Source of the DNA: Bacteroidota bacterium
Lineage (GTDB): Bacteria > Bacteroidota > Bacteroidia > 2-12-FULL-35-15
Assembly: GCA_025963715.1 (NCBI GenBank)
Contig: JAOQAG010000008.1
Coordinates: forward strand, 23,907-87,906
Length of the DNA: 64,000 bases
Reading direction: 5' to 3'
The notes beneath the pieces are model-generated. The model was not told where the DNA came from. It saw only the letters and a list, made by a program, of their open reading frames with translations, and did not search any database. Of the stretch, positions 3,448-62,406 are shown one piece after another. Position numbers and translations under genes: made by a program. Every line of letters starts with the position of its first letter. Positions within the stretch are counted from its first letter, which is position 1.

Positions 3448-3472
3448 TCCACTGCGTTTCTCACACACAGTA

Positions 3473-3503
3473 CTTGATTCTTGATTCTTGATTCTTGATT
3501 CTT
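3473..3503. repeat. Heptanucleotide microsatellite (CTTGATT)x4 plus partial unit in the gldE-gldD spacer
   Basis: cttgattcttgattcttgattcttgattctt, immediately 3' of the gldE stop (3506-3508). Confidence 0.9.
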
Positions 3504-3505
3504 TT

Positions 3506-4849
3506 TTAGTCTTCATTGCTGCGTTCAATTGTAATTTTAACACGTTTAATTTTCCGGTTATCCGCCGATTCGATCGTGAATAACAGGTTTTCAAATTTAA
3601 TGAGATCTCCTTTTTTAGGAATGCGGCCTTCCAGCTCCAACAGTAATCCGGCAAGCGAATCGGCTTCCCCTTTTGCTTCTTCAAACACATCACCGTCAAT
3701 TTCCAGGACACGGTATACATCATTCAAATGCGCTTTTCCTTCAAACACATAATTATCATCATCCAGCTTCGAATACGTCAGATCATCGTCATCAAATTCA
3801 TCGTTGATCTCACCCACAATTTCCTCGATCACATCTTCCAGCGTAACAATTCCGGACGTTCCGCCATACTCATCCACCACAACCGCTAAGTGGATTTTTT
3901 TAAACTGGAACTCACGCAACAGATCATCGATCTTTTTATTTTCGGGAACAAAAAACGGCGGACGGATAATTCCCTGCCAGTTAAATGTATCGGCTTCATT
4001 CAAATACGGAAGCAAGTCTTTTGTGTACAACACACCGGTGATCTGGTCGATGGTTTCCTTGTAGATCGGCACGCGCGAAAAACCATAATTGGTAATTTCT
4101 GCCAGTAATTTTTTATAATTGGTGCCAAATTCAATGGCCGTTACATCCGTCCTCGATTTCATGATCTGCTTCACATCGGTATTACCGAACTTTACAATTC
4201 CCTGTAAAATTTTGTGATCTTCCTCCGGAATGTCTTCATCAGAAGTCAGCTCCAGCGCCTGCGATAATTCATCCACCGAAATATTGTGCGCTTTAGGCTT
4301 TACTAATTTATTGATCATGGAAGTGGAATACACCAATACCGAGCTGATCGGATAAAAGATCTGCTGCAGCAACACTATAAAAAACAACAATACGCGCGCA
4401 ACTCTTAAAGGGTTTTGTGTAGAGTAAATTTTCGGGATCACCTCACCAACCATTAAGATCAGGAAGGTAACCACCACCACCTGGATCACAAATCCGAGCG
4501 TCGGGCTTTGCGAAAAATCAAACAAACCTTCCATTACGTACGTGGAAAGTATAACAATGGCGATATTGATAAAGTTGATGCTGATCAGCAGCGTTGCCAG
4601 CAAGCGTTTCGGCTTGTTGATAAGCAAAAGAATGCGGTCATCCGTTTTACTGCTGGATTCTTTCAGCGTTTCGAGATCGGTAGGTGTAAGCGCAAAAAAT
4701 GCAGATTCAGCAGCCGAAACCAGCGCTACAATGCAGAGGAAGATCAGCATAAAAACAATTGCCGCTCCAATGCCAAACGTAAAAGGTTTAATAATAACTT
4801 CCGATAAAGGAATGTGAAGATTCGTTATAAAAACACCCGGAAGGTCCAA
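3506..4849 (-). CDS. gldE: Gliding motility protein GldE (CNNM/CorC family: DUF21 transmembrane domain + CBS pair + CorC_HlyC domain)
   Basis: N-terminal 4-TM DUF21 region, CBS-pair region, C-terminal transporter-associated domain; synteny with ssb/mutY/gldD. Confidence 0.8.
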   Translation of the reverse strand: MDLPGVFITNLHIPLSEVIIKPFTFGIGAAIVFMLIFLCIVALVSAAESAFFALTPTDLETLKESSSKTDDRILLLINKPKRLLATLLISINFINIAIVILSTYVMEGLFDFSQSPTLGFVIQVVVVTFLILMVGEVIPKIYSTQNPLRVARVLLFFIVLLQQIFYPISSVLVYSTSMINKLVKPKAHNISVDELSQALELTSDEDIPEEDHKILQGIVKFGNTDVKQIMKSRTDVTAIEFGTNYKKLLAEITNYGFSRVPIYKETIDQITGVLYTKDLLPYLNEADTFNWQGIIRPPFFVPENKKIDDLLREFQFKKIHLAVVVDEYGGTSGIVTLEDVIEEIVGEINDEFDDDDLTYSKLDDDNYVFEGKAHLNDVYRVLEIDGDVFEEAKGEADSLAGLLLELEGRIPKKGDLIKFENLLFTIESADNRKIKRVKITIERSNED

Positions 4850-5396: not shown

Positions 5397-5600
5397 CACA
5401 CCCCTAACCCCTCTCAATGGCTCCTACGCTGAAGCTTCGGCGCAAGCGTAAGGGGAATTGATCCTGCTCACAATCTTAATTGATATACAGATTTGTAAAT
5501 TCCTGCCCGACTGCGTCATTCAGGCGGGTGTATTTATTTGTAATTTGTAACCACCCAGATTCGTAATATTCGTTCCTGTTCGTTATCTGTACCACGTTAT
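5397..5600. repeat. Composite intergenic repeat family B, copy 1
   Basis: Shares blocks cacccctaacccctctcaa, ggggaat.gatcctgc, ctgcccgactgcgtcattcaggcggg and cgttcctgttcgttatctgta with 19413-19555 and, inverted, 41540-41760. Confidence 0.8.
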
Positions 5601-12839: not shown

Positions 12840-12900
12840 TAATTGCCGAAAGTTTATATTGTAGATCCGCCGTTATTTTATTGACTTTTTTAATCAACTT

Positions 12901-12992
12901 GTCATTGCGAGGGCTTTTCGCCCGAAGCAATCTCATTCTAGATTTATATACTGGTGTGAGATTGCTTCGGGCGAAAAGCCCTCGCAATGACG
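12901..12992. repeat. Palindromic element family P92, copy 2 (34-nt arms, perfect)
   Basis: gtcattgcgagggcttttcgcccgaagcaatctcat(tctagatttatatactggtg)tgagattgcttcgggcgaaaagccctcgcaatgacg. Confidence 0.9.
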
Positions 12993-13247
12993 TTTTTAAA
13001 AATAATTCCTTTTTGTGAATATAAGTTTCGAATACTCATTTAATAATAAGTGTGTAAATTTTCCACACAAAAATAATTCCCTCCGTTTAAACCACTGTCT
13101 TTATCCGTTGTCATACGAGCGGATAAAGACAAAATGAGCATGTTCTTCTATGAAATAGCAGAGTACTTCTATTTCAGTTTTTAATACATGTTTCATGTAT
13201 GATCTTTATAAAAATTTTATCTGTAAAATTTATTTTAAGATCTTTCT

Positions 13248-14684: not shown

Positions 14685-15279
14685 TCCAAAACCTTAGAAA
14701 TCATTTAAACAAAATCTTGCATTAAAAAAATATAGGTTTACCTCTACCTTTTACTTTTTGAAGGCAAAAAGTAACAAAAACCTTTTCTGCCTGTAAGGTA
14801 ATTTTTCCTTCCGCTGCCGCTACAGGAAAACCGCGGTTAATTTCGCGCATACGGTTGGTCACTTCGTAACTATGACTTTTCTGGCGCTTATTCCCGCTAT
14901 TACTGAACAGGCCGAAATAGTCTGCAGAATGAGTATCCTATTGTTTTTTTTAAATTGGCAGCAGAATGTTTGAGAAGCGGAGCATGATTTTAATTCACCC
15001 CGATCCGAAGGGAGTACGAAAAAGAAATTCAGAAGGGCGCGGTGGCCAGAACAAGTAGCGGGGACGCGTCAGGTGGTGTGTAGGACCGATGGCTTGTTCT
15101 TGAATTTTTTGTTTCTTTTTGTTTCAAGACAAAAAGAAAAGAGAATGAAATGAAGCAGCATTCGATTTTATACTTCTAAGGATTCAAACAAAAAACTACA
15201 TTTTACTAATGCAAAATCTAAAACAAATTGGCATCGCAAGATTTTTGTTTTAAATTAGCTACAACCAAAAAACATCCTC

Positions 15280-17784
15280 ATGAAAAAGCTGTACACTTTA
15301 TTCATACTTCTCACGTTTGCAACATCTGTTTTTTCACAACCCGCCAGCTGGAATGCCCGCGGAATTGGCGGAGGCGGTGCTTTGTTTTCACCGAGCATTA
15401 ATCCGGGTAACGGCAATGAATATTACATTTCCTGTGATATGAGTGAGCTTTTTCACAGCGTCGATTTTGGACAAACCTATTCACAAGTAAATTTTCAACA
15501 GTTTACAGGCGGGCACAATTCGAAAGTGTGTTTTACCGCCACTCCTCACCTGCTCTACTCGATCAGTTATATCAACGATGTGGGTACACCCGTAAAAAGT
15601 AATGACAATGGTTTTAACTGGACCGCGCTCAGCGGAAATCCGGATGCAAGCGAAGACGTAGTTACTATTGATGTAGATTATAACAACCCAAGCCGGATTA
15701 TTATTTCCACGTATGGCGCCATTTATTTTTCGGGTAACAGTGGCGTTACGTTTACACAGTTCCACACTGCCGTGGACGGCGGCGCAGGAAATGTGGTAGG
15801 CGGCGTTTTATTTGATTCCAATAATATTTATGTCGGAACCAACGATGGCGTGCTGGTTTCTACTAATTTCGGCACCACCTGGACAATTGCAGCCTTGACC
15901 GGAATTCCATCTTCCGACAGGATCTGGAGCTTTACAGCTGCTAAAGTTGGTGGCGTGGTACGTTTTTATTGCCTCACAGGCAATGCTGCTGATATTTATG
16001 TGGGTTTACAGGGTTCCGATTATTATGGCTTTTGTACCGGAATCTATTCCTGTGATTATTCATCTTCTACTGCATGGGTGCTGAAAACAACGGGAATTAA
16101 TTTAAGCTCTGATTTCCCAATGTTTATTGATATGGCACAAAACGACCTGAATACGGTATATCTAGCGGGGAGCAATGATAATTCGGAACCGATCATTATG
16201 AAAACCACCAATGCAGGCGGCATGTGGAACCATACATTTTTAACGGCATCCAATCAGAATATAATTACCGGCTGGAGCGGCCAGGGTGGTGATCGCGGCT
16301 GGAGTTACGGCGAATGTCCGTTTGGATTTGATGTATCTGCAACCAATTCACAGGAAGTTATTTTCGGTGATTTCGGATTTTGTCATAAAACAATTGACGG
16401 CGGCGCAACCTGGCAGCAGGCGTATGTGAATACAAGCGGGCAGCATCCGGCGAATGCAGCAACACCGCCTAATCAAAGCTATACCAGTATTGGTTTAGAA
16501 AATACTACCTGTTGGCAGGTGAACTGGCCGGATGCAAATAATATGTGGGCCTGCTATTCCGACATTCGCGGGATCCGCAGCACCGACGCCGGAAACAGCT
16601 GGTCGTATAATTATACAGGTACAACTGCCAACTCCAGCTACAGGCTTGCGAAAAGTACAACAGGAAGATTGTACATGGGTACTTCCAACATCCACGATAT
16701 GTACCAGAGCACGCGCTTGCAGGATGCACAGCTGGATGCAGCGGATGCAAATGGCAAATTGCTTTATTCGGATGATAATGGCGCAACCTGGCTGAACATG
16801 CACACGTTCGGGCATTCTGTTTTTTGGGTGGCGCTGGATCCTTCCAATTCAAACCGCGGTTACGCAAGCGTGATCAATTATGGAGGGGGCGTTGGCGGTG
16901 TGTATCGCTGTAATAATTTATCGGCACTGGGAAGCTCCACCTGGACGCAATTACCTGCTCCGCCGCGTACAGAAGGACATCCGGCAAGCCTGGTGGTATT
17001 GAACGATGGAAAATTAGTGGCAACCTATTCCGGCAGACGCGATGGAAGCAGCGCATTTACTGCCAGTTCCGGCGTTTTTATTTATGATCCGGTAGGCAAC
17101 TCCTGGGCGGATGTTTCGGATGCGGGTATGCATTACTGGACAAAAGATGTGGTGATAGATCCGAATGATGCCACGCAAAACACCTGGTATGTTTGTGTTT
17201 TCAGCGGTTGGGGCGGCCCACCCAATGGCTTGGGTGGTTTATACAGAACAACAAACAGGGGAACCAGCTGGACCAAATTAACAGGCACATCGCTCGACAG
17301 GGTAACTTCCTGCACCTTCAATCCAAACAATGCAAATGAATTGTATATCACAACAGAAACGCAGGGCTTGTGGAGAAGTGCTGACATCAATGCTACAAGT
17401 CCGACCATTTCCCTTGTAGGAAATTATCCTTTCCGTCAACCGGAGCGCGTATTTTTTAACCCGTATAATACTACTGAAATGTGGGTAACCAGCTTTGGCA
17501 ACGGAATGAAAATGGGTACGCTGTTAACCACCGGCGAAGTTGAATTTGCAAATGAAACAGTGTTTGAAATGTATCCGAATCCTGCAACAGATGTTTTAAC
17601 AATCACAACGGATACAAAAAATCCGGTAGTGGAAATTTACAATGTGCTGGGTGAAAAAGTTGGAGGGTACCAAATCACAACTAATAAAAACGAGATCTCC
17701 ATTGCTGATTTAAAAAGCGGGATTTATTTTGTAACGCTGCTGGTGGATGGAAAGAGAGTGACGAAGAAACTTGTGAAGGAATAG
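15280..17784 (+). CDS. BNR/Asp-box repeat (GH74/sortilin-like beta-propeller) protein with T9SS type-A C-terminal sorting domain
   Basis: Multiple S/T-x-D-x-G-x-T-W motifs (SNDNGFNWT, FGTTWTIA, DGGATWQQA, DAGNSWSY, DDNGATWLNM, TNRGTSWTKL); C-terminal MYPNPATDVLTIT...GIYFVTLLVDGKRV. Confidence 0.75.
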   Translation: MKKLYTLFILLTFATSVFSQPASWNARGIGGGGALFSPSINPGNGNEYYISCDMSELFHSVDFGQTYSQVNFQQFTGGHNSKVCFTATPHLLYSISYINDVGTPVKSNDNGFNWTALSGNPDASEDVVTIDVDYNNPSRIIISTYGAIYFSGNSGVTFTQFHTAVDGGAGNVVGGVLFDSNNIYVGTNDGVLVSTNFGTTWTIAALTGIPSSDRIWSFTAAKVGGVVRFYCLTGNAADIYVGLQGSDYYGFCTGIYSCDYSSSTAWVLKTTGINLSSDFPMFIDMAQNDLNTVYLAGSNDNSEPIIMKTTNAGGMWNHTFLTASNQNIITGWSGQGGDRGWSYGECPFGFDVSATNSQEVIFGDFGFCHKTIDGGATWQQAYVNTSGQHPANAATPPNQSYTSIGLENTTCWQVNWPDANNMWACYSDIRGIRSTDAGNSWSYNYTGTTANSSYRLAKSTTGRLYMGTSNIHDMYQSTRLQDAQLDAADANGKLLYSDDNGATWLNMHTFGHSVFWVALDPSNSNRGYASVINYGGGVGGVYRCNNLSALGSSTWTQLPAPPRTEGHPASLVVLNDGKLVATYSGRRDGSSAFTASSGVFIYDPVGNSWADVSDAGMHYWTKDVVIDPNDATQNTWYVCVFSGWGGPPNGLGGLYRTTNRGTSWTKLTGTSLDRVTSCTFNPNNANELYITTETQGLWRSADINATSPTISLVGNYPFRQPERVFFNPYNTTEMWVTSFGNGMKMGTLLTTGEVEFANETVFEMYPNPATDVLTITTDTKNPVVEIYNVLGEKVGGYQITTNKNEISIADLKSGIYFVTLLVDGKRVTKKLVKE

Positions 17785-17824
17785 TTCAAAGTTTAAAGTT
17801 TGAAAGTTCAAAGTTTGCTGTGTA
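17785..17824. repeat. Stop-adjacent element SAE (gttcaaagtttaaagtttgaaagttcaaagtttgctgtg), copy 1
   Basis: Begins 1 nt after the TAG stop of the BNR gene; same family at 22655-22700, 22745-22790, 34761-34811, 41931-41972. Confidence 0.85.
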
Positions 17825-17929
17825 ATGCTGTGTGTTTTACCGCAGAGGACGCGGAGAAGGCGCAAAGGCCGCAAAGAAGTCAAGTCCAAAATGCGGTATG
17901 ATAAATGGGACGCTAATCTCTCGTAACCC

Positions 17930-17958
17930 TGTTATCCCGGGCCTGACCCGGGATCTGT
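17930..17958. repeat. CCCGGG-core hairpin element family H, copy (tgttatcccgggcctgacccgggatctg)
   Basis: Same motif at 34692-34721, 38661-38690, 50183-50212 and 50248-50277; related at 414-441. Confidence 0.8.
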
Positions 17959-18005
17959 TGTTTAGAAATAGTTCACCGGTTTGTTTTCTTTTGCGGTTAA
18001 ATTTT

Positions 18006-19364
18006 CTACGGAAACAACACGCCGTTACATTCCATACAATTAACCGTAGGAATCACCGAGCTGTATTTGTTGTTGATGGCTTTTATAAATTCATTCGCGA
18101 TCAGCGCGTATCCTTTTTGATTGGGATGATAACCATCCAGGCTCAGGAAACCACCGGTAACAAATTCGGCATTAAAATCCGCACCGTCCCAGATAATTCC
18201 GGTTTTAACGCTTGCCATAAACGAATGCATATCTACCAGCGCTAAATTATATTGCGCTGCTTTTTGCGCGATCACCGAATTGTAACTGCTGATGGCAGCA
18301 TCAATGGCGTATACTTCTTCACTGTCGAGTACATAACGGTCGTTGATGGTATTCACGAGCAAGCCGTACTGCTGGCATTTCATCGAATCTACAGGAGTGG
18401 AAAGTGTAATGTATTCGCCACTGTGCAGCTGGCGGAAACCACCGTTTGCATTTACATCGTCGATCACAAAACCGTTGCGGCCTGCATGAAAATTAATTTG
18501 TGTCAAGCCTGCCGGTTGGTATACATTGTTCAGATCATCCGCTTGTGATTGCGTGATGTCGGCATTGTCCCAGGCCACCAATGTGTAATAAGGAAAATTC
18601 CGGAAATCAGGAATGTTGGCGATCACACCTTTTGCGCCGTTAACGGTAAGTCCTTGTAACAACGAATCAAGATACATCGAGAATGCGGAAGAAGATGGGA
18701 TCGGTGCACTGGTACCACCGCTTGCCGCGAAATTAAAAATGTCTTCCATACCAACCCAGGCTGTAAAAAAAGTAGCATTCTGCTCTTTCGCATCCGAAAA
18801 AACAGTGGATGTTCCGGGTGTGCTGGCAATGCGGTTATAGAATGGATTTTTTTGTGCTGCAGCCGAAGAAAGATCTCCAAAAGCCGGATTAAAATAATCC
18901 GCAATGTTTGCATACGGCACTGCAAAATTCTGGATACTGTTGCCCGCTAATCCGCTCAGATAAGGAACGGCAGCCGATCCGGAAACAGTGCTGCGTAACG
19001 GAAATAAAGAAGAAACGCCCTGGCAATCGGTTTTATAACCTAAATGGCTTGCCGTGATGTAAAGGCTTTCCCAGGTTTTATCATTCAATCCCAATCCTCT
19101 GTCATCGGGCATCATTACCTGGTTAAAAGCGGTGCCGCCAACCAGTTTAAATTGTTCGGCAAGCAAGGCAGGGATACAATATTTTTGTCCTTTCTGGTAC
19201 AAGGCGCCATCCTGGTAACCGGCCATAAAATCGCCGCCGACGGCAATTGTTTTGGTAAAATTGGCATTACCGGCTTTTGGTTTTGGAACATCCAGTTCGG
19301 GAGTGCAGGACGAAATTAAAAATGTGGAAAGAAGGGATAGAAATAAGGTAGTTTTTGTTGTCAT
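18006..19364 (-). CDS. SGNH/GDSL-type hydrolase family lipoprotein
   Basis: Lipobox LISSC after signal peptide; C-terminal LDGYHPNQKGY (DxxH block of SGNH hydrolases). Confidence 0.6.
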   Translation of the reverse strand: MTTKTTLFLSLLSTFLISSCTPELDVPKPKAGNANFTKTIAVGGDFMAGYQDGALYQKGQKYCIPALLAEQFKLVGGTAFNQVMMPDDRGLGLNDKTWESLYITASHLGYKTDCQGVSSLFPLRSTVSGSAAVPYLSGLAGNSIQNFAVPYANIADYFNPAFGDLSSAAAQKNPFYNRIASTPGTSTVFSDAKEQNATFFTAWVGMEDIFNFAASGGTSAPIPSSSAFSMYLDSLLQGLTVNGAKGVIANIPDFRNFPYYTLVAWDNADITQSQADDLNNVYQPAGLTQINFHAGRNGFVIDDVNANGGFRQLHSGEYITLSTPVDSMKCQQYGLLVNTINDRYVLDSEEVYAIDAAISSYNSVIAQKAAQYNLALVDMHSFMASVKTGIIWDGADFNAEFVTGGFLSLDGYHPNQKGYALIANEFIKAINNKYSSVIPTVNCMECNGVLFP

Positions 19365-19412: not shown

Positions 19413-19555
19413 CACACCCCTAACCCCTCTCAAGAGGGGAATCTGATCCTGCATACATTTTAATTGTACACAGATTAATCACATTTGGAATACACACAGA
19501 TTCGTAGTCATCCTGAGCTTGTCGAAGGACGTTCCTGTTCGTTATCTGTATCAGG
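19413..19555. repeat. Composite intergenic repeat family B, copy 2
   Basis: cacccctaacccctctcaagaggggaatctgatcctgc ... tcatcctgagcttgtcgaaggacgttcctgttcgttatctgta. Confidence 0.8.
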
Positions 19556-20959: not shown

Positions 20960-21305
20960 AATATACGAAAAAATGTGGTTAGAAAAGAGAGGAATTTCTC
21001 GCAGGATTTCCGTGTGTGGTTTCTCGCAGAGGCTCGGAGAAAGCGGAGGTGGGCGTGTGCCGGGTGGTTCTCCCGCAGAGGCTGGATATATTTTCTCACA
21101 AAGACGCAAAGTTCGCAAAGGCTGTATGTTTCTGTGTGTGGTTTCTCGCAAAGGCGCGGAGAACGTGGAGGCTGGGTAGTTACTGTATGTTATTGCTTCG
21201 CGGAGATCGGATGTATTTTTGCAAACAATCTAAAGACTAATTACTAAAGACCAGCTATTTTTTCCACACAGCCTAATGACTACTTACTAAAGACTAGCTA
21301 CTGTA
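20960..21305. repeat. Tandem/composite repeat block TR (ttctcgcagaggc.cggagaa.cg.ggag units, ttctcacaaagacgcaaagttcgcaaaggc, ctaattactaaagac) upstream of apbC
   Basis: Highly similar to block 43693-44140 upstream of the rluB-like gene; single unit also at 17838-17880. Confidence 0.85.
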
Positions 21306-22654: not shown

Positions 22655-22790
22655 ACTTTTAAAAAGTTCAAGGTTCAAAGTTCAAAGTTTTGCTGTGTTT
22701 GTTTCTATATTTAAAGGTTGAACATCCACAGTATTGCAAGTCTGGCATCTGCGCAAAGCTAACCTTGAACCTTGAACTTTGAACCAAAAA
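22655..22790. repeat. Inverted pair of SAE elements forming a ~135-nt potential stem-loop between porP-like stop and next gene start
   Basis: aaagttcaaggttcaaagttcaaagttttgctgtg ... ggcatctgcgcaaagctaaccttgaaccttgaactttgaacc. Confidence 0.8.
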
Positions 22791-22793
22791 AAC

Positions 22794-23720
22794 TTATTGC
22801 ATTTTAGCTGAGCTTCCTCTTTCCGGCGTTTTGTGAAATTTAATTCCGATCATGATTTCGTGCGTTCCCGTGCTGTATTTTTTAATAGCCGTGGTTGTAA
22901 AATCATACGAATAGGCAAACGTAATGTTTTCCTGCAGCGTGTAACCAATCATCGCCGACATTGCATCCAGGTAACGGAAAGCGCCGCCCAGCCATAATTT
23001 ATCTTTGTAGATGGCACGCAATCCAATATCAAATTGTACCGGTGCCGGGCTTACAAATTTTACACAGGTGGAAGGCTCCACTTTAAAATCATTGCCGAGG
23101 TAAAACTGGTAACCGGCCGTTACATAATAATGTGTTGCCAGCCTGCTCAAACCGGTGTTGGTATAATCGTAAAATTTAATGCGGTTTTGTGTGACCTGCG
23201 GAACGCTTGCGCCGATGTACCATTTGTGATCCGTAGAATACGCATAAACACCTGCGCCAAAATCAGGGATCAACACCGATTCCACACCGCTGCTGATCAC
23301 ATTGTCGTGCGGATCGTGCAGCGTAATTTTAGAACCATCCACCATAAATTGTAAAATACCGCCCGAAAGTCCTAAGGATAAACGTACTTTTTGCGACAGC
23401 TTTAAATGATAGGCGTATGATAAATACAAACCTGTGCGTCTTGTCGGGCCAACAATATCCGTAAACAACAAACCACCCAATCCCACATTCTGATTTTTTG
23501 TAGGCCCGTTCACACTCAGCATATACGTACGTGGCGCATCCGTGATCCCGATCCACTGGTAACGGTTATTCGACATCGCCTCAAAATACGGATGGCTGCC
23601 GCCGATCGCCGGGTTCATCGGATAATCATTCAGCATGTAATTGCTGTAAAGCGGCAATTGCTGTGCCCGCAGATCCGCTACAGCTGCAATAAATAAGAGT
23701 ATCGCTATTATTTTTTTCAC
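22794..23720 (-). CDS. sprF: PorP/SprF family type IX secretion system membrane protein (cognate of the adjacent type-B CTD adhesin)
   Basis: Signal peptide (M)KKIIAILLFIAAVADLRAQQ then LPLYSNYMLNDYPMNPAIGGS..., typical PorP/SprF N-terminus; GTG starts at 23753 (track) or 23720 (better signal peptide). Confidence 0.8.
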   Translation of the reverse strand: MKKIIAILLFIAAVADLRAQQLPLYSNYMLNDYPMNPAIGGSHPYFEAMSNNRYQWIGITDAPRTYMLSVNGPTKNQNVGLGGLLFTDIVGPTRRTGLYLSYAYHLKLSQKVRLSLGLSGGILQFMVDGSKITLHDPHDNVISSGVESVLIPDFGAGVYAYSTDHKWYIGASVPQVTQNRIKFYDYTNTGLSRLATHYYVTAGYQFYLGNDFKVEPSTCVKFVSPAPVQFDIGLRAIYKDKLWLGGAFRYLDAMSAMIGYTLQENITFAYSYDFTTTAIKKYSTGTHEIMIGIKFHKTPERGSSAKMQ

Positions 23721-23783
23721 CTTGTAATTTTTTAAAATTCTTTTTTCACACACATTTTATCTCCTGGTTTGCAACATAAAATG

Positions 23784-32644: not shown

Positions 32645-32930
32645 AGTATCCGGAACTTTGTACCATAAAAAGAGTTCCTTTAAGAACGTCATTGCGAGGG
32701 CTTTTCGCCCGAAGCAATCTCATTCTGGTTTTATACTCTGGTGTGGGATTGCTTCGGGCGAAAAGCCCTCGCAATGACGCGCTAAGTAAAAAATCAATAA
32801 AAATAAAGCGAAAGTTTATACCAAAACTGTTTTATCTTATTGAAAAAAATTTCATTAACACGTCATTCCGATCCCCCAGGTGGAGAAGATCTCATTTAAA
32901 TCTACCACATAAGGTACAAAGTTCCGGATA
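32645..32930. repeat. 19-bp inverted repeats (gtatccggaactttgtacc / ggtacaaagttccggatac) bracketing P92 copy 3: possible larger MITE shell
   Basis: IR at 32645-32663 and 32912-32930. Confidence 0.6.
32688..32779. repeat. Palindromic element family P92, copy 3 (34-nt arms, perfect)
   Basis: gtcattgcgagggcttttcgcccgaagcaatctcat(tctggttttatactctggtg)tgggattgcttcgggcgaaaagccctcgcaatgac. Confidence 0.9.
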
Positions 32931-33108: not shown

Positions 33109-34563
33109 ATGAATACTAAAACTATCAAATCGAAAATGTACGGGGTGTTATTTTTAACATGCATTTCCGTACTTGGTGTGAAAGCGCAACAGGTAAGAAC
33201 CGTTGGTGACTTTACAGGAATTAAAGCCGGTGACTCTTTTGATATCGTTCTTTCACAAAGCGACGCCAACAGTGTAAAAGTGGATGCACCGGACAATGTG
33301 CAGGCACAAATTAAAACAGAAGTAAAAGACGGGATTCTGACTGTTACTACTGAAGGTAACATCAAAACCGACAAAACGATCACGATCACGATCGGGGTAA
33401 AAAACCTGACCAGCCTGGATGCATCGGGTGCTGCGGATATTAAATCCGATAACCAGCTTACCTGCGATAAATTAACGATCACTTCCAACGGTGCCGGTGA
33501 TGTAAACCTTGATGTGAAAGCAAACGAAGTGAAAGCGCAGATCAGCGGTGCTGGCGATGTTACTTTAAAAGGAACTGCTCAGCTACTGGATGCAGGTGTT
33601 TCCGGAGCCGGTGATTTAAAAGCATCGAACCTGGAAGCTGATAAAGTAAAAGTAAAAGCAACGGGAGCCGGAAGTGCAAAGGTGTATGCGAAACAAAGCC
33701 TCGATGCGGATGTTTCCGGCGCTGGTGACGTGATCTACAAAGGCAACCCGGTTGATCCTACGGTAAATATTTCCGGATCAGGATCTGTTCGCGAAAGCAA
33801 AAGCGGTAATGGCGAAGAAACGGCAAGAGATACGACCAAAATTAAACTGGGCGGAAAAAAATACATGATCATTGGCGACGATGATAATGATCAGAAAGCA
33901 GAAGTACACAGCAAAAAAGATTCGATCCGCAATTACAATTCTGATTTTAAACACTGGAACGGTGTGGAACTGGGCGTAAATGGTTTTATGGATTATAAAA
34001 ACAGCCTGAATGCACCTGATAATGCTAAATTTTTAGAATTGAATTATGCAAAATCGTACCAGTTTGGAGTTAATTTATTTGAAAAGGATTTTCATATCTA
34101 TAAAAACTTCATCAACATTGTTACCGGTGTAGGATTTAATTTCAACCATTATGCATTCGATAACAACGTTACATTAAGAGCAGATAGTACGTATATGTCG
34201 GCAAGTACAGACTCGGTAAAATACAAAAAGAACACACTGAATGTTAGCTACATCAGAGCTCCGTTGATGCTGGAGATCAACACCAGCAAAAACCCGAAAA
34301 ATAATTTTCACATTGCAGGCGGTGTTGAGTTTGAATATATGATCCACGCGGTATCAAAACAACGTTACGATGAAAACGACAATCATTACAAGATCAAAAA
34401 ACGTGATGATTTTAATATGGATCCGTTCAGCTACAGCGCTATTGCACGTATTGGTTATAACAATGTAACAGTGTATGCAACTTACGGCCTGAACCGTTTG
34501 TTCAAAAAAGACGAAGGTCCGCAAGTATATCCTGTAAGTGTTGGAATTTCCTGGACGCTGTAA
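33109..34563 (+). CDS. DUF2807/GIN (autotransporter-adhesin head-like) domain fused to a C-terminal outer-membrane beta-barrel-like domain
   Basis: Signal peptide; N-terminal VRTVGDFTGIKAGDSFDIVLSQS...repetitive GAGD beta-solenoid units; C-terminal alternating hydrophobic beta-strands (residues ~290-484). Confidence 0.55.
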   Translation: MNTKTIKSKMYGVLFLTCISVLGVKAQQVRTVGDFTGIKAGDSFDIVLSQSDANSVKVDAPDNVQAQIKTEVKDGILTVTTEGNIKTDKTITITIGVKNLTSLDASGAADIKSDNQLTCDKLTITSNGAGDVNLDVKANEVKAQISGAGDVTLKGTAQLLDAGVSGAGDLKASNLEADKVKVKATGAGSAKVYAKQSLDADVSGAGDVIYKGNPVDPTVNISGSGSVRESKSGNGEETARDTTKIKLGGKKYMIIGDDDNDQKAEVHSKKDSIRNYNSDFKHWNGVELGVNGFMDYKNSLNAPDNAKFLELNYAKSYQFGVNLFEKDFHIYKNFINIVTGVGFNFNHYAFDNNVTLRADSTYMSASTDSVKYKKNTLNVSYIRAPLMLEINTSKNPKNNFHIAGGVEFEYMIHAVSKQRYDENDNHYKIKKRDDFNMDPFSYSAIARIGYNNVTVYATYGLNRLFKKDEGPQVYPVSVGISWTL

Positions 34564-34625
34564 GTTATAAAGTTGAAAAGTTTAAAGGAATTTAGTTTTG
34601 ATTTAGTACCCAGTTAATTATGAGA

Positions 34626-34658
34626 AATCCCACGACATACACGTTGTGGGATTTTTTT
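34626..34658 (+). terminator. Rho-independent terminator (atcccacgac ataca cgttgtgggat + T8)
   Basis: 10-bp stem with one mismatch, T8 run. Confidence 0.7.
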
Positions 34659-34691
34659 TGTTTGTCTAATGGCATGTTGGTCCCTAATTAA

Positions 34692-34721
34692 CAGATCCCG
34701 GGTCAGGCCCGGGATGACAGT
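34692..34721. repeat. CCCGGG-core hairpin element family H, copy
   Basis: cagatcccgggtcaggcccgggatgacagt, identical to 38661-38690. Confidence 0.85.
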
Positions 34722-34760
34722 CAAAAGGATGATCGATTTTCATAATTAACCTTTCAAAAG

Positions 34761-34811
34761 GCATCTGCGCACAGCAAACTTTGAACTTTCCAACTTTAAA
34801 CTTTAAACTTA
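34761..34811. repeat. SAE element copy abutting the stop codon (34812-34814) of the cyclase gene
   Basis: gcatctgcgcacagcaaactttgaactttccaactttaaactttaaactta. Confidence 0.85.
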
Positions 34812-35570
34812 TTAAAGCGCTTTATTCAACTGAAACAACAGCGGTTTGCTTGGTGAAGCATCATTTTCAAAGCTCGCGATCTGGATGTTAAGTAAATATG
34901 TTCCATCAAAAATAGTATTGGGAACATAGATCATTTCGGTGATGGTGCGTGCAGTTTTTGTATTGTGCGGATATTGCCAGAATGCATGATGCGCCAATAG
35001 TTTCCCGCCATCCACTTCCTTATCCACCGATGGCAGATCGATGAGTAAATGATCAATTCCCAGCTGATCAATGTATTCGGCGGCTTCGTGATGCAGGTAA
35101 GGCGGATTGGTGTTGGAATATTGCCGGTTAATTTTTGAGATGTGATTATCAAGTGTACGGATGACGAGTGCTTCCGGATGCTTTCCATCCAGGCAGTTTT
35201 CGATGTGTTGTTTTGTAATAATGTGATCGCCTTCCGGAGTTTCATCCGGTAAAATGGTGATCAGCTCTGCCATAAAAAAGAATTTTTTCAGAGATTGGTT
35301 AATGCTGTAATCTTCCTTGCTGATGTGCCCCACACATTCGGTGTGTGTACCGTTGCCATGCGGATTGAACATAATGTTCCTGAAATTTACAGAACCGCCC
35401 TGCTTTACATCGCCCACCCAATCGCCCATACGAACTGGCTCAATTGTAACCGGTTTAGCATACCATGCATTCACATTTTCTTTTCCCGTGCGTAAGGGAA
35501 TAGAAATATCGATCGGTTTATCGAGATCAAGATTGTAGGATGTTCCTTTGAATGTGATTTTTGTAACCAT
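34812..35570 (-). CDS. Cyclase family protein (kynurenine formamidase-like)
   Basis: HGNGTHTECVGHISKE matches the HxGTHxDxPxH cyclase signature. Confidence 0.7.
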   Translation of the reverse strand: MVTKITFKGTSYNLDLDKPIDISIPLRTGKENVNAWYAKPVTIEPVRMGDWVGDVKQGGSVNFRNIMFNPHGNGTHTECVGHISKEDYSINQSLKKFFFMAELITILPDETPEGDHIITKQHIENCLDGKHPEALVIRTLDNHISKINRQYSNTNPPYLHHEAAEYIDQLGIDHLLIDLPSVDKEVDGGKLLAHHAFWQYPHNTKTARTITEMIYVPNTIFDGTYLLNIQIASFENDASPSKPLLFQLNKAL

Positions 35571-38448: not shown

Positions 38449-38574
38449 AAAAAATAAAGCCACAGATTCACAGATTTTTTCTTTTCAAATTAATTACACA
38501 GATTTTCCGAATCGCAAAGCGATTTGAATGATCTGAGTAAATTTTTTTCAGTTTTTTAATCTGTGAATCTGTGG
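38449..38574. repeat. MITE-like element E1 with perfect 18-bp terminal inverted repeats (gccacagattcacagatt)
   Basis: TIRs at 38449-38466 and 38557-38574; internal aatcgcaaagcgatttgaatgatctg; related rearranged copy at 45464-45545. Confidence 0.85.
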
Positions 38575-38597
38575 CGACAATAATACAATGGCAGGAT

Positions 38598-38647: not shown

Positions 38648-38660
38648 AGTTTTTAATTGG

Positions 38661-38690
38661 CAGATCCCGGGTCAGGCCCGGGATGACAGT
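38661..38690. repeat. CCCGGG-core hairpin element family H, copy
   Basis: cagatcccgggtcaggcccgggatgacagt. Confidence 0.85.
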
Positions 38691-38762
38691 ACAGAAGAAA
38701 AATCCACTTCCTAATTTACACACAGCATCCACACAGATTGGTATATTAGTAAAAATTGGTAT

Positions 38763-41447: not shown

Positions 41448-41539
41448 CGGAAGAACCGTAATTCATACAAAGTTTATAAAAATAGCGTGTAGTGCTTTGG
41501 AGTTCAGGCAGATGTTATCAATAACGGAAAGTGAATAAG

Positions 41540-41760
41540 TTTAGTATTACGGATAACGCCCGCCTGAACGATTCGGGCAGGAACAGGAACGTCCTTCGAC
41601 AAACTCAGGATGACAACGAATCTGCGTAGAGCCAACGAATAACGAATTTTAACGAATAACGAATCTGCGTAGGGTACGGGTAACAGGAACGAATATTCCC
41701 CCCGCCTGAATGACGCAGTCGGGCAGAAATCTGTGTGGATGGGGTGTATGATGGAACGCG
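41540..41760. repeat. Composite intergenic repeat family B, copy 3 (inverted)
   Basis: Contains reverse complements of tcatcctgag.ttgtcgaaggacgttcctgttc, ctgcccgactgcgtcattcaggcggg and aatattcgttcctgtt. Confidence 0.8.
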
Positions 41761-41930
41761 TATTTGGCAGATGTAACGGATAAAGGCGGATATTGAACCA
41801 CAAAAGAAAACAAAAGGACTCAAAAGAATTGGATGTAACATACCAACGTGAATTCCTTGATAGGCGAGGTAAGTAAAGCCTTTGCGCTTTTCTTTGCGCC
41901 TCTGCGACTTTGCGGTTATTTTTTAGCAAA

Positions 41931-41972
41931 CACAGCAAACTTTGAACTTTCAAACTTTAAACTTTGAACTCC
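41931..41972. repeat. SAE element copy abutting the stop codon (41974-41976) of the rluB-like gene
   Basis: cacagcaaactttgaactttcaaactttaaactttgaactc. Confidence 0.85.
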
Positions 41973-41973
41973 C

Positions 41974-43662
41974 TTATTCCCCGCTGCTAATCATTTTCAG
42001 CATTCCTACTTCTGATTCGGTTAAAAGTCTCCAGCGGCCGCGCGGCATGTCTTTTTTGGTCAGTGGGCCAAACACAACCCGGTCGAGCTTACGGACATTG
42101 TATCCCAGGTGTTCGAAAATACGGCGTACAATGCGGTTTTTACCGGAGTGAATCTCTACGCCTACATTGGTTTTATCTTTTCCATCGGCAACGTAGGAGA
42201 TCTCATCCACTTTGATCGGGCCGTCTTCCAACTCCAAACCTTCTGTGATCAGGTCGAAATCCGAGCGTTTCAGCGGTTTGTCCAATTCTACATGGTAGAT
42301 CTTACGCACGCCGTAGCGCGGATGGGTTAATTTTTTTGTTAGTTCACCATCATTGGTAAACATCAGCAAACCGGTAGTAGCCCTGTCGAGGCGGCCAACC
42401 GGGTAAATGCGTTCGCGGCAGGCATCCTGTACCAACTCCAGCACGGTTTTGCGCTGTTGCGGATCGTCAGATGTAGTCACATAATCCTTCGGTTTGTTGA
42501 GGATCAGGTATACCAAACGCTCCTTTTTCAGGGTTTGTCCGCCATACTTGATCACATCCGTAGGTTTTACTTTGTAACCCATTTCGGTGATCACTTTTCC
42601 GTTTACCTGCACCACGCCTGATTCGATCAGATCGTCGGCCTCCCGGCGGGAACAAATCCCGGCATTGGCAATGTATTTATTTAAACGGATGGTGTCATCG
42701 TCGTTTGATTTGTGCATTCCTGAAGCCGGGCCTTTACCGGATGATTTTTTCTCATACGCGCGTTTTTTATACGGGCGTGAATGGTTCAAACTGTTCCGTT
42801 CGGTACGCGGTGCGCTGTCTCCCTCATCGTCTTTCGGTCTTGGCGCTGCTTTTTTAGTACCATTCTTTTTATCCAGGTATTCCTGTTCGTAATCAATTGC
42901 ACGGTCGCTTGCTCTTACAAAAGCCGGTTTTGATTCGTAAAAATCATCATCATAGCTTTTTTTAGAAGCGCTTTTTTCCGATCTGTCATCATCATCGCGT
43001 GTTTTACGGAAAGTTGGTTTATCAGAAGAAACACGGCGTTTGTTCTCTGTATAGCTTGATTTTTTCTCGCGGTCGAAGGATGCCGGTTTCTTTTCGGAAG
43101 AATCGTCGTTACGGGTTTTGCGGAAAGCTGGTTTATCGCCGTAGGATTTGCGTTTATCATCGCCGTAAGCCGGTTTTTTCTCGCGGTCAAAAGAGGCCGG
43201 TTTCCGTTCGGAAGAATCAGTATCACGGGTTTTGCGGAACACTGGTTTATCGCCGAAAGGTTTGCGTTTGTCATCGCTGTAAGCTGATTTTTTCTCGCGA
43301 TCGAAGGAAGCAGGTTTCCGTTCGGAAGAATCAGTATCACGGGTTTTACGGAACGCTGGTTTATCGCCGTAACCGGATTTTTTTTCGCGGTCAAATGCAG
43401 GTTTTCTTTCGGAAGAATCATCGTCATCACGCTTTTTACGGAATGCAGGTTTATCGCCGAAAGGCTTGCGCTTATTATCGCCGTAGCCGGAAGCACTGCT
43501 TTTTCGAGGCGCGGAGCTTCCAAAGTCAGATGGACGGGAATCATCGCGGTAACGCTCAAAAGCTGGTTTTTGATCCTTTTTTGAGTCTTTGCGGGATTTT
43601 GGTTCAGACGATTTTTTATCCTTAAAATCTTTGCTGTTACTGCGTTTGAATTCCTTTGCCAT
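41974..43662 (-). CDS. rluB: 23S rRNA pseudouridine synthase (RluB/RsuA family) with a ~300-aa Lys/Arg/Asp/Ser-rich repetitive N-terminal extension
   Basis: C-terminal S4 domain (IRLNKYIANAGICSRREADDLIESGVVQVNG) and PseudoU_synth_2 core (YPVGRLDRATTGLLMFTNDGEL). N-terminus has about 5 tandem ~40-aa units (RKPASFDREKKSAYSDDKRKPFGDKPVFRKTRDTDSSE). Start moved from track position 43722 to the second Met (43662) because the upstream codons lie inside the TR repeat block. Confidence 0.8.
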   Translation of the reverse strand: MAKEFKRSNSKDFKDKKSSEPKSRKDSKKDQKPAFERYRDDSRPSDFGSSAPRKSSASGYGDNKRKPFGDKPAFRKKRDDDDSSERKPAFDREKKSGYGDKPAFRKTRDTDSSERKPASFDREKKSAYSDDKRKPFGDKPVFRKTRDTDSSERKPASFDREKKPAYGDDKRKSYGDKPAFRKTRNDDSSEKKPASFDREKKSSYTENKRRVSSDKPTFRKTRDDDDRSEKSASKKSYDDDFYESKPAFVRASDRAIDYEQEYLDKKNGTKKAAPRPKDDEGDSAPRTERNSLNHSRPYKKRAYEKKSSGKGPASGMHKSNDDDTIRLNKYIANAGICSRREADDLIESGVVQVNGKVITEMGYKVKPTDVIKYGGQTLKKERLVYLILNKPKDYVTTSDDPQQRKTVLELVQDACRERIYPVGRLDRATTGLLMFTNDGELTKKLTHPRYGVRKIYHVELDKPLKRSDFDLITEGLELEDGPIKVDEISYVADGKDKTNVGVEIHSGKNRIVRRIFEHLGYNVRKLDRVVFGPLTKKDMPRGRWRLLTESEVGMLKMISSGE

Positions 43663-43692
43663 TTTACTGATTTTTTTTGCAAAGATAGGTAT

Positions 43693-44140
43693 TTTTTCTC
43701 GTAGAATCGCGGATTTTACCACTAAGGCACTAAGAACACTAAGGGTTGTACTCGCTGGCTCGTTTTCTGGTTTTTTCTCGCAGAGGCGCAGAGAACGCGG
43801 AGCTGGGTGTTCGCGGGCTCACGTTTTTTACCACTAAGACACTAAGGACACTAAGCTAATGGCTCGCAGGCTCGCATTTTTTCTCGCAGAGACGCGGAGA
43901 ACGTGGAGCTGGATGCTCGCGGGCTCACGTTTTTTTACCACTAAGGCACTAAGGACACTAAGCTAATGGCTCGCAGGCTCGCATTTTTTCTCGCAGAGAC
44001 GCAAAGTTCGCAAAGGCTACGTGTTTGCTGGGTGCTTGCAGGTTCGGTTGTGATTTCCAGCGGAAACGCAGAGATCAGATGCGCTACGTTCCACACCACC
44101 TACCGACTAATTACTAAAGACTATTTACTAAATTAAACTA
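43693..44140. repeat. Tandem repeat block TR (~118-bp unit x ~2.8 plus ttctcgcagagacgcaaagttcgcaaaggc and ctaattactaaagac tail) upstream of rluB-like gene
   Basis: Units approx 43693-43787, 43788-43905, 43906-44020; paralogous to 20960-21305. Confidence 0.85.
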
Positions 44141-45380: not shown

Positions 45381-45463
45381 TGTATGGAACGCGGATGATG
45401 CGGATAGGGCGGATAAAAACGGATCAATACCAAATGTGTTTACTGAACTTGGCGTCTTATTTT

Positions 45464-45700
45464 TGCCACAGATTCACAGATTAAAAATGGAAAAGGGATT
45501 TTCACAGATCATTCAAATCGCTTTGCGATTTAGATAATTTGTGTAATTAATTGAACTTCCAGGCGCGAGTGTCCCAACGTGCCAAACTATTTTATGGCAT
45601 CTTGCCATTATTTAAAGTATTTAAGAGCAGGACGCTCTAAAAATAAAGAGGCACGACACTCGCGCCTGCGTGCAATTAATTGAAATAAAAAATCTGTGTC
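45464..45700. repeat. Pile-up of E1-like element (single TIR, internal segment inverted) and an inverted pair of E2-type modules
   Basis: gccacagattcacagatt...cagatcattcaaatcgctttgcgatt...ccaggcgcgagtgtcccaacgtgccaaactatt...gaggcacgacactcgcgcctgcgtg. Confidence 0.8.
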
Positions 45701-50182: not shown

Positions 50183-50277
50183 CTGTCATCCCGGGCTTGA
50201 CCCGGGATCTGCCAATTAAGAACTGCGTAGATGCTGCAAGTGTTTAGCAGATCCCGGGTCAAGCCCGGGATGACAGT
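50183..50277. repeat. Inverted pair of family-H hairpin elements (31-bp arms, 35-bp spacer)
   Basis: ctgtcatcccgggcttgacccgggatctgcc ... gcagatcccgggtcaagcccgggatgacagt. Confidence 0.9.
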
Positions 50278-56288: not shown

Positions 56289-56360
56289 TGGTTTCGTAGT
56301 TCAACGGATAGAATAGAAGTTTCCTAAACTTTTGATCCCAGTTCGATTCTGGGCGAGACC
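56289..56360 (+). tRNA. tRNA-Arg (anticodon CCT)
   Basis: Manual cloverleaf: acceptor ggtttcg/cgagacc (one G-U), D-stem gttc/gaat, anticodon stem gaagt/acttt, loop ttCCTaa, 4-nt variable loop, T-arm cccag ttcgatt ctggg, discriminator A; CCA not encoded. Confidence 0.8.
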
Positions 56361-56511
56361 ACAAAAGCCTCACAGAAATGTGGGGCTTTGTACTTAATAG
56401 TGAATATTTCACAACATTTAAGCTAGTTACCATATATCATAATAAGAAACACCAAAGTAGTATTCAGCAGGTTTCTGTCTTTTTTTACTTTTATCTTGAA
56501 AAACAAGTATA

Positions 56512-60517: not shown

Positions 60518-60812
60518 GATATTTAATTTTTATTTTTTGTCCTTACTCTTTTTAAGGCTTTTCGGGTTACGCCTTTATCATTATTTTGAAGCTTCGGTAA
60601 TGATGCAACAAATGAACAGCGAATTAATTATCCCAAACAGCGCAAAAACACCCTATTATAAATTCAGGTGTTTATACCTGCCTCTCCGCTAAATGGCCGT
60701 AGAATGGGAAATCTGGCCTTTCATCCAATTAAAATAAAGAGAAGAATGATATTACACAGACAAATTATTACATTTGAATTACTGTATTTACATACATCTT
60801 AAATCCAACCAC

Positions 60813-62076: not shown

Positions 62077-62102
62077 GGCGAAAAAGCCCTCGCAATGACG
62101 CG
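62077..62102. repeat. Half copy (right arm) of palindromic element P92
   Basis: ggcgaaaaagccctcgcaatgacgcg. Confidence 0.7.
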
Positions 62103-62406
62103 TTGATTAAAATTTTTCCCAATAAAATCGCTATAGCTTGGTATAAACTTTCCGATTTCATTAAAGATTAAAACAAAAAGCTACATTTTTCTAATACAGA
62201 ACTGAAGATAACCGGGCTGTAAAATTACCTGAATCGGAATATATCAATTACATCCACGAATATGATTATTGGTCCCCGGCATATTGGCCTTATTAGCAAT
62301 TTTATCTTCTTTCCACCTGATTCTTTTCATTCTGATCTGCAGCCAAACTATTTCCATTTTTTCGATATCTTTATATTGAAAAAATAAATAGCCCAATAAA
62401 AATCGC

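Follow-up and report, generated by a model that had tools for sequence, protein, structure and literature searches.

Miniature inverted-repeat transposable elements (MITEs) of the IS630/Tc1-mariner type, such as the Correia elements of Neisseria, are short non-autonomous elements which sit at TA dinucleotides that they duplicate, lie beside genes and are co-transcribed. Elhai and colleagues are said to have described in 2008 the short tandemly repeated repetitive (STRR) heptamers and the small dispersed repeats (SDRs) of cyanobacteria, the former being tandem intergenic heptamers and the latter mobile repeats of under 30-40 nt that nest in each other; the SDRs are reportedly associated with hairpins, and targeting of stop codons is not said to have been reported for them. 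Repetitive extragenic palindromic (REP) sequences of the GTAG type have been reported to donate TAG stops to the open reading frames (ORFs) that flank them (PMC3733652), and direct repeats of the heptamer TAACTGA have been described in Beggiatoaceae, Cyanobacteria and five Bacteroidetes (MacGregor 2015, PMC4679880). Here we analyse a short repeat, referred to as the GTTC element, in 64,000 nt of DNA from a Bacteroidota bacterium (assembly GCA_025963715.1, contig JAOQAG010000008.1, positions 23,907 to 87,906 of the forward strand; this whole stretch is the window, and coordinates without a prefix refer to it), where it occurs in five copies, A to E, most of them directly downstream of stop codons. 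Contigs and loci other than the window are designated by an L number. On balance we lean towards regarding the element as a lineage-specific family of ultra-small (17-40 nt), non-coding and non-palindromic mobile modules that are non-autonomous, target TA and reside at stop codons.

Sense-oriented modules past stop codons

A preliminary description of this DNA had claimed a conserved element of about 45 nt at four unrelated stop codons together with a fifth, inverted copy, and all five copies were found, at or within a few bases of the coordinates given there, when their limits are drawn from the first G of the array to the end of GCTGTG or of the long tail. Copy A (17784..17822, + strand) is a 39-nt module, GTTCAAAG TTTAAAG TTTGAAAG TTCAAAG TTTGCTGTG, whose first G completes the TAG stop (17782-17784; gap -1 nt) of a type IX secretion system (T9SS) BNR gene (15280-17784); it is flanked by TA at 17782-17783 and by TA at 17823-17824, and the A after the second TA yields a displaced TAA. 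Copy B (22744..22784, - strand), made up of GTTCAAAG TTCAAGG TTCAAGG and the long-tail variant GTTAGCTTTGCGCAGATGCC, starts 9 nt past the TAA (22794-22796) of a PorP/SprF gene. Copy C (34760..34808, - strand), a four-unit array with the long tail GTTTGCTGTGCGCAGATGCC, directly follows the TAA-TAA (34809-34814) of a cyclase/kynurenine-formamidase-like gene, its gap of 3 nt being the second TAA, while copy D (41931..41969, - strand) is a 39-nt module identical to A that starts 4 nt (GGGA) past the TAA (41974-41976) of an rluB-like gene. For B the distance exceeds the 0-8 nt from the stop that had been proposed. Copy E (22666..22697, + strand) is the inverted partner of B and is directed away from the start codon of the next gene (22650). 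According to Pfam, the genes upstream of the copies encode a T9SS cargo protein with a Por_Secre_tail (15280-17784), PorP/SprF (22794-23753), a cyclase-family protein (34812-35570) and an S4/pseudouridine-synthase rluB-like protein (41974-43722).

In the module, a GTTTGCTGTG tail comes after one to four GTT(C/T)(G)AAA units, and lengths are quantised at 17, 24, 31 and 39-40 nt. In the long-tail variant, GTT(T/A)GCT(G/T)TGCGCAGATGC(TGTGTG), the tail motif is often doubled, and the tail is sometimes extended to ...GCGCAGATGCTGTGTG. Where a gap separates array and stop it is purine-rich (GAA, AAGA, AAAGA, AAAAGA, GGGA or GGAAAAA) and resembles a 5'-truncated unit. Tandem Repeats Finder describes the arrays as head-to-tail heptamers of varying unit number (period 7, 3.6-4.9 copies, 82-90% matches), and the degenerate array motif occurs 17 times in the window versus 1.45 times expected from shuffles, none of 100 shuffles reaching 17. 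Units of 7-8 nt are gained or lost, and in L027 an identical AA-to-GG change is found in neighbouring units. Copies A and D are identical over 41 of 41 nt (39 of 39 over the module) and A and C over 38 of 40; the non-repetitive tails are common to several copies as well (CACAGCAAACTTTGAAC in A, C and D; GGCATCTGCGCA(A/C)AGC in B and C), in agreement with the earlier proposal that conservation extends into unique flanks. An independent Logan assembly contig of the same organism, L001, is 100% identical and ends inside copy C, as expected where a dispersed repeat breaks an assembly, indicating that the repeat is real and not an assembly artefact.

Stop-proximal placement in sense orientation is the rule for this element. 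A regular-expression census of about 310 kb (the window, the sister-species assembly OLLL01 and the metagenome contigs L009 and L021), in which ORFs were long stop-to-stop frames rather than gene-finder calls, found 22 copies, and 19 of these start from -6 to +14 nt past the stop codon of an ORF that lies on the same strand and has 93 or more open codons. The sampled sequences were ascertained partly through the motif itself, which introduces no bias on position relative to genes. A non-coding position and an orientation drawn at random from these sequences would satisfy this in 3.7% of cases (P about 1e-24 for 19/22), and within the window alone four of the five copies abut a sense-strand stop (P = 9e-6), so that the constant orientation noted before is sustained. 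The three exceptions are copy E and L005(+), both inverted partners of stop-abutting copies, and L019:2921, located upstream of a divergent start codon at a distance of 10 nt. With an nhmmer profile two further copies were detected, L012:9763, which has no long ORF, and a diverged OLLL01 orthologue of copy C.

An exact scan of 185,579 species-representative genomes for the junction 19-mer AAGTTCAAAGTTTGCTGTG returned two chance matches only, both inside unrelated sequence, indicating that the element is not widespread. Among metagenome and whole-genome shotgun records the 19-mer was found at 18 loci, 11 of them from OLLL01 (GCA_900291705.1); beyond these, true arrays are present on L009 and L021, the remaining loci being chance matches in coding DNA.

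Insertion and turnover in related genomes

OLLL01 represents a sister species that is syntenic with the window over 11.7-50 kb, with coding DNA 85-88% identical and with protein identities of 98% for PorP, 98% for the cyclase and 95% for an asmA/yhdP-like protein. The array families are present in a narrow clade whose cyclase is at least 97% identical, and the next relatives, with values of 89% or less, lack them; no array was found in about 69 kb from five syntenic loci of relatives farther away (cyclase 85-89% identical).

Filled and empty versions of one site can be compared at the DUF2807 gene, which ends in WTL* in both the window and L027, three outgroups lacking the insert. The stop region reads CTG TAA G in the window and CTT TA[G TACGGATAACGAACAGGAACGAAAAACGAATCTGTGTG] TAA G in L027, the bracketed insert being GTACGGATAACGAACAGGAACGAAAAACGAATCTGTGTG; the L027 insert is a clean 39-nt module within the stop codon, accompanied by a duplicated TA. 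In L027 the new TAG is composed of TA and the first G of the module, and the old TAA is displaced. The same TA...TA(A) layout is found at copy A (TA[39 nt]TA-A), at L010(+) and L014(+), and, in OLLL01, at the stop of UPF0102. In the GTTC family a 5' TA and a 3' TA co-occur (3/5 vs 0/17, Fisher P = 0.0065), and among about 14 stop-embedded modules counted by hand the tail of 6 is followed by TAA, compared with 3% background TAA (P about 2e-6). At the asmA/yhdP-like stop both species are filled with arrays of different families, the window (38717-38762) reading TA[A ATACCAAT...GCTGTGTG]TAA and OLLL01 (L033:11465-11510) reading TA[G TTTCGAATTACGAAT...CTGTGTG]TAA, which indicates either repeated independent insertion at one stop codon or replacement of the module.

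The copies in the window differ in age. Copy C has diverged orthologues in both OLLL01 and L027 and is thus older than these splits. At the cyclase stop that precedes it, L025 and L026 have a bidirectional terminator hairpin 9-13 nt downstream, the other distant loci have unrelated hairpin repeats in between, and in the window the array, an unrelated spacer and a REP-like hairpin sit between the stop and the orthologous terminator hairpin. At the site of copy D, OLLL01 and all other syntenic relatives have a convergent Peptidase_M90 gene that overlaps the 3' end of rluB, and copy D is accordingly new in the present lineage.

Dispersed copying is evident from the relation between site and similarity. 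Orthologous sites are 51% (A), 53% (B) and 64-69% (C) identical between species. For coding DNA the figure is 85-88%, and it reaches 90-92% for non-orthologous pairs across species and 100% for A and D; since non-orthologous copies are more alike than orthologous ones, copies seem to be continually made from, or converted to, conserved sources while old copies decay. This similarity across species, along with the conserved tail and the identity of A and D, bears out the view that a defined element is present rather than low-complexity drift. Copy B is 90-95% identical to L005(-) of OLLL01, a non-orthologous site, and subfamily variants such as GTTAGCTTTGCGCAGATGC are common to both species at different loci. 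The strain-level contigs L029 and L030 were 100% identical to OLLL01 and are thus uninformative on variation between strains.

Several other differences between the species were observed in these regions. The Peptidase_M90 gene that lies elsewhere between rluB and the asmA/yhdP-like gene is replaced at 41448-41973 by about 520 nt of repeats that include copy D, and its loss may have been a repeat-mediated deletion. In the rluB-like gene itself, an in-frame tandem repeat of 114 nt (2.8 copies) followed by 90-nt units forms an N-terminal extension (43058-43491), and orthologues measure 401-534 aa vs 582 aa for the mechanical ORF in the window. Upstream of this gene and pointing away from its start lie tandem blocks of 53 and 107 nt (43712-44019 and 21017-21174) with modules of the form [T-run ACC ACTAAGG x3 ...] and [T-run CTC GCAGAGG x3 ...], the OLLL01 version being shorter and diverged. 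An insertion of about 530 nt relative to OLLL01 (14686-15219) contains a dispersed repeat of about 200 nt (14745-14948) that shares 86% identity with L011:1196-1399 and has a further match at the extreme end of contig OLLL01000211.

Mechanism and competing explanations

Intrinsic terminators consist of a G+C-rich stem-loop followed by a U-tract, and Rho utilization (rut) sites are unstructured stretches of about 70-80 nt that are C-rich and G-poor. An intrinsic (Rho-independent) terminator module or a Rho-loading site right past the stop, the former of which had been proposed in the preliminary description, would suit the sense orientation and the position between stop and downstream DNA; some OLLL01 copies are followed by GCTCC-TTCG-GGAGC and a T-run, and the array is unstructured as rut sites are. 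The folding of single copies is, however, not significant against shuffles (z +0.45 to -1.2), with no REP-like stable hairpin, scans for terminator and promoter consensus around all window copies gave shuffle-level results with nothing adjacent, and a custom search for a hairpin and T-run within 90 nt succeeded at 5 of 22 copies overall and at none in the window. The native terminator past the cyclase gene is a separate conserved hairpin (34622-34657, 97% identical to L027). As a rut site, the element was rejected because its composition (G 23%, C 8%; nine G and three C in the 39-nt element) is the reverse of that required and because the array spans just 17-40 nt. The modules terminate nothing by themselves on this evidence, and we hold a terminator or rut role to be the least probable of the explanations discussed here. 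Resemblances to the tRNA T-loop (GTTCAAA), the IS91 target (GTTC/CTTG), a -1 frameshift heptamer (TTTAAAG) and Bacteroidetes -33/-7 promoter boxes were set aside as short-word coincidences.

The inverted pair of B and E, as had been suggested, folds into a stem-loop of about 135 nt within the predicted transcript from PorP to the next gene (dG -43.7 kcal/mol, z = -4.2, none of 200 shuffles as good). Such inverted arrangement was seen only for the two-module pairs B/E and L005(+/-). Rfam 15 gave no family match at any copy, and ORFs that overlap arrays (41504-41953, 17832-18245) had no Pfam match, the 149-aa ORF at 41504-41953 being spurious and beginning inside copy D. The sole Rfam matches in the window were a DUF805b RNA motif (60540-60575, - strand, 46.7 bits) and tRNA-Arg(CCT) (56290-56362, + strand).

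If the modules are mobile, as we favour, their behaviour could be accounted for by a transposition-like insertion targeted to TA. New copies would be made from conserved source sequences and would enter a TA dinucleotide, which is duplicated; where this TA belongs to a TAA stop, the first base of the module (G or A) would recreate an in-frame TAG or TAA, so that the upstream protein would remain unchanged while the old stop would come to lie beyond the module. In the opposite orientation the insertion would yield TAC and read-through, which would explain at least part of the sense-orientation bias through selection of, or targeting for, the stop-rebuilding orientation. The resident module would then persist passively as a presumably transcribed, unstructured and A/U-rich stretch of the 3' untranslated region (UTR) between the stop codon and the native terminator, without terminating transcription on its own account, and would subsequently change as units of 7-8 nt are gained or lost and point mutations arise.

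Several observations weigh against this mobile-module account. The sole clean empty/filled pair, at DUF2807, belongs to a sister family and not to the GTTC family, in which TA flanks the short-tail boundary on both sides in only 3 of 22 copies, most of the others having purine-rich leaders (GAA, AAGA, AAAGA, GGGA) and tails continuous with other modules, so that their limits are uncertain. Single copies lack terminal inverted repeats, the 5' end GTTCAAAG... and the 3' end ...GCTGTG showing no complementarity; no transposase, reverse transcriptase or HUH-type transposase was found among the approximately 40 annotated ORFs of the window, and plasmids, phages and viral contigs gave no relevant match. 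The census spans no more than about 310 kb of contigs. Furthermore, sense orientation is also kept in all copies that lie 3-11 nt past the stop, which regeneration of the stop does not explain, TA targeting alone gives no reason for stops to be preferred over other intergenic TAs, and insertion leaves unexplained why one grammar is common to different families. Modules occupy the same sites in both species at A, B, C and the nifU, asmA/yhdP-like and UPF0102 stops, which would fit a selected function.

Such a function could reside in the RNA, the module acting as an unstructured A/U-rich binding platform, an RNase entry site or a spacer between ribosome and hairpin, with mobility merely the means of its spread. 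It would explain the strict orientation even a few nt past the stop, the retention of modules at the same gene ends in species about 14% apart in coding DNA and the conservation of the consensus 19-mer across species. A spacer could matter since the hairpin 9-13 nt past the cyclase stop in L025 and L026 may be masked by a terminating ribosome, and protein binding has been proposed for other heptamer arrays (MacGregor 2015, PMC4679880). Nevertheless, orthologous copies fall to 51-69% identity, with units and even families replaced, unit number ranges from 1 to 4, close relatives with the same genes do well without the element, and the genes concerned have no common theme and no candidate binding protein was identified; we therefore consider a functional 3'-UTR element unlikely, albeit with an appreciable chance. 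Somewhat less probable still is a more far-reaching proposal with two forms. Either the modules would be a new class of mobile DNA of about 17-47 nt, array and CTGTG tail in many flavours, inserted at stop TAs in the rebuilding orientation by a putative enzyme whose targeting itself senses the end of an ORF (e.g. through a link to translation termination or to a stop-proximal transcript) rather than by later selection, or they would make up a code in the 3' UTR that this Bacteroidota lineage reads by means of an RNA-binding protein.

A local origin, in which microsatellite-like arrays (STRR or long simple sequence repeats, LSSR) arise by slippage of the stop-codon context with no transfer between loci, is in line with lengths stepped by 7-8 nt, with the identical changes in neighbouring L027 units and with the presence of TAA, TGA and TAG in the units TTTAAAG, TTTGAAAG and TTTAGAAG, and among the long simple repeats of bacteria heptamers are the most frequent (Mrazek 2007, cited in PMC4679880). 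It is contradicted by a non-repetitive tail of 10-25 nt common to unrelated loci and across species, so that slippage would be valid only for changes of unit number after insertion; the identity of A and D over 41 nt although D is a new site, the far greater likeness of non-orthologous than of orthologous copies and the sharing of variants such as GTTAGCTTTGCGCAGATGC between species at different loci also speak against it, and its probability appears slim. A signal at the level of DNA, namely sites for nucleoid or partition proteins, a DNA-uptake sequence or recombination sites, would agree with an over-represented short word in direct repeats and with the placing of the array, in every case, on the side of the nearest ORF (seen for copy E, for L019:2921 and in other families), which is a rule of DNA geometry and not of transcripts. 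We judge it very improbable: a 7-8-bp period puts successive sites on different faces of the helix, orientation tracks the adjacent gene on both strands and not the replichore, sequence turnover at orthologous sites is fast and no associated protein is known.

Should the modules indeed be mobile, they would be among the smallest mobile elements seen in bacteria and would illustrate a simple and harmless route for selfish DNA into a compact genome, namely to enter a stop codon and rebuild it. They would also account for the mosaic heptad repeats in the 3' flanks of roughly one in five genes in this genus and for the poor assembly of such genomes, whose contigs break inside the repeat. Their presence in a narrow clade and absence in the next relatives offers a handle for tracing the mobilising enzyme. 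Gene callers and predictors of terminators and small RNAs will be misled by the arrays, as at ORF 41504-41953.

The wider class and its place among known repeats

The GTTC element belongs as one flavour to a larger class carried by this lineage, and the grammar of the class is a heptad or octad array starting with a purine, followed by a (G/C)TGTG(TG) tail, other units being found directly past other stops. Such sister-family modules are (GAATCAA)x4-GTACTGTGTGTG at the stop at 3506 of a gldE-like gene and ATACCAAT...CTGTGTGGATGCTGTGTG at the stop at 38763 of the asmA/yhdP-like gene, while ACGAAC-type arrays occur after nifU and after the gene ending at 5628, and arrays of AGTCTTTAGTAATT after the UPF0102 gene; OLLL01 holds further families of the same grammar. 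CTGTGTG is intergenic in 11 of its 16 occurrences in a window that is 79% coding, and about 8-10 of some 50 gene ends in the window bear an array and tail. Modules beside gene starts point away from the gene, so that tails converge in the middle of the spacer, B/E being one case.

Arrays of related kinds also adjoin the GTTC copies. Copy A is followed (17826..17880, + strand) by a second tail TGCTGTGTG, TTTTACC and a purine-rich array GCAGAGG ACGCGGAG AAGGCGCAAAGG CCGCAAAG, and this combination recurs after the OLLL01 copy L010:7813, a non-orthologous locus. The downstream partner of copy D (41880..41930, - strand), TTTGCT AAAAAATAACC followed by the array GCAAAGTCGCAGAGGCGCAAAGAAAAGCGCAAAGGC, is of the module type found after A, in diverged form. 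A degenerate array of the same kind, GTTATAAA GTTGAAAA GTTTAAAGG (34564..34588, + strand), has no CTGTG tail and lies directly past the TAA of the convergent DUF2807 outer-membrane gene (33109-34563), at the site that is filled by the additional 39-nt module in L027. The spacer at 3248-3503 between the gldE-like gene (CNNM/CorC, 3506-4849) and gldD (about 2635-3220) is filled with arrays, (GAATCAA)x4 with a CTGTGTGTG tail right past the stop and then three copies of a 60-nt unit; the mechanical ORF 2635-3723 overruns this spacer, and its GldD match is limited to residues 169-338.

True REP-like hairpins coexist in the window as separate families. One of these, CGTCATTGCGAGGGCTTTTCGCCCGAAGCAATCTCA...TGAGATTGCTTCGGGCGAAAAGCCCTCGCAATGACG, is present at 1513-1604, 12901-12992, 32688-32779 and 62082-62112, has 35-nt arms that are 97-100% complementary and, in common with the CGTC-tagged REPs (Di Nocera 2013), begins with CGTC; at the orthologous site OLLL01 lacks the copy in 12840-13041. 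A second hairpin repeat, CTGTCATCCCGGGCCTGACCCGGGATCTG (17929-17965, 34684-34720, 38650-38689, 50183-50215 and 50244-50276), lies downstream of copies A and C and of the asmA/yhdP-like module, and the copy by C is orthologous in OLLL01. Smaller hairpin repeats are GTCATCCTGAGCTTGTCGAAGGAC (19494-19540 and 41581-41627), which is nested in an ACGAAC-type array module directly past the nifU stop codon, and CCCGCCTGAATGACGCAGTCGGGCAG (5499-5528 and 41701-41730), and a 99-nt inverted-repeat family, 84% complementary and with doubled CACAGATT words, occupies two different intergenic regions (38488-38586 and 45454-45552).

Compared with TA-duplicating MITEs of the Correia type, the modules share a gene-adjacent position, a presumed co-transcription with the gene and, in a subset, flanking TAs of the kind left by insertion with TA duplication, and the B/E pair, with arrays outward and tails inward over about 135 nt, is like a MITE with array-type inverted ends. 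Single modules differ in lacking terminal inverted repeats, in being 3-10 times shorter and in their strong bias towards stops and one orientation, and no related insertion sequence was seen. The earlier suggestion of a MITE with a preference for TAA or TAG is thus supported in part, by the evidence of insertion and of a TA duplication that regenerates the stop; with no inverted ends in single copies, a length of just 17-40 nt and no transposase found in the window, the modules are not classical MITEs. The STRR and SDR repeats, as they are reported, resemble the present case in combining heptads with tiny nesting repeats in a genome rich in mosaic repeats; they belong to another phylum and have other sequences, and here the heptad array and a unique tail form one unit.

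The TAACTGA arrays, with 2-6 units of a specific heptamer, are likewise intergenic, stand in a strict relation of orientation to ORF boundaries and are absent in relatives with the same gene neighbourhood (PMC4679880). They lie mostly just upstream of starts in forward orientation, whereas the arrays of the window lie just downstream of stops and consist of a different heptamer, and no conserved tail or TA duplication is described for them (PMC4679880). With REPs and bacterial interspersed mosaic elements (BIMEs) the modules have in common a high copy number, a length of 20-40 nt, an extragenic location concentrated at gene 3' ends and the formation of mosaics with other short motifs, the element analysed here being extragenic, present in five copies in 64 kb and located past stops in 19 of 22 cases; their dynamics within the genome are similar to those of REPINs (PMC3116915). 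REPs are nonetheless defined by a hairpin, while the present modules are direct heptad arrays with no significant structure, TA duplication is not a REP feature and no REP-associated tyrosine transposase (RAYT) is known here. In conclusion, the modules are miniature interspersed repeats, set apart by the lack of the hairpin of REPs and of the size and inverted ends of MITEs, and the known elements nearest to them in habit are REPs and BIMEs.

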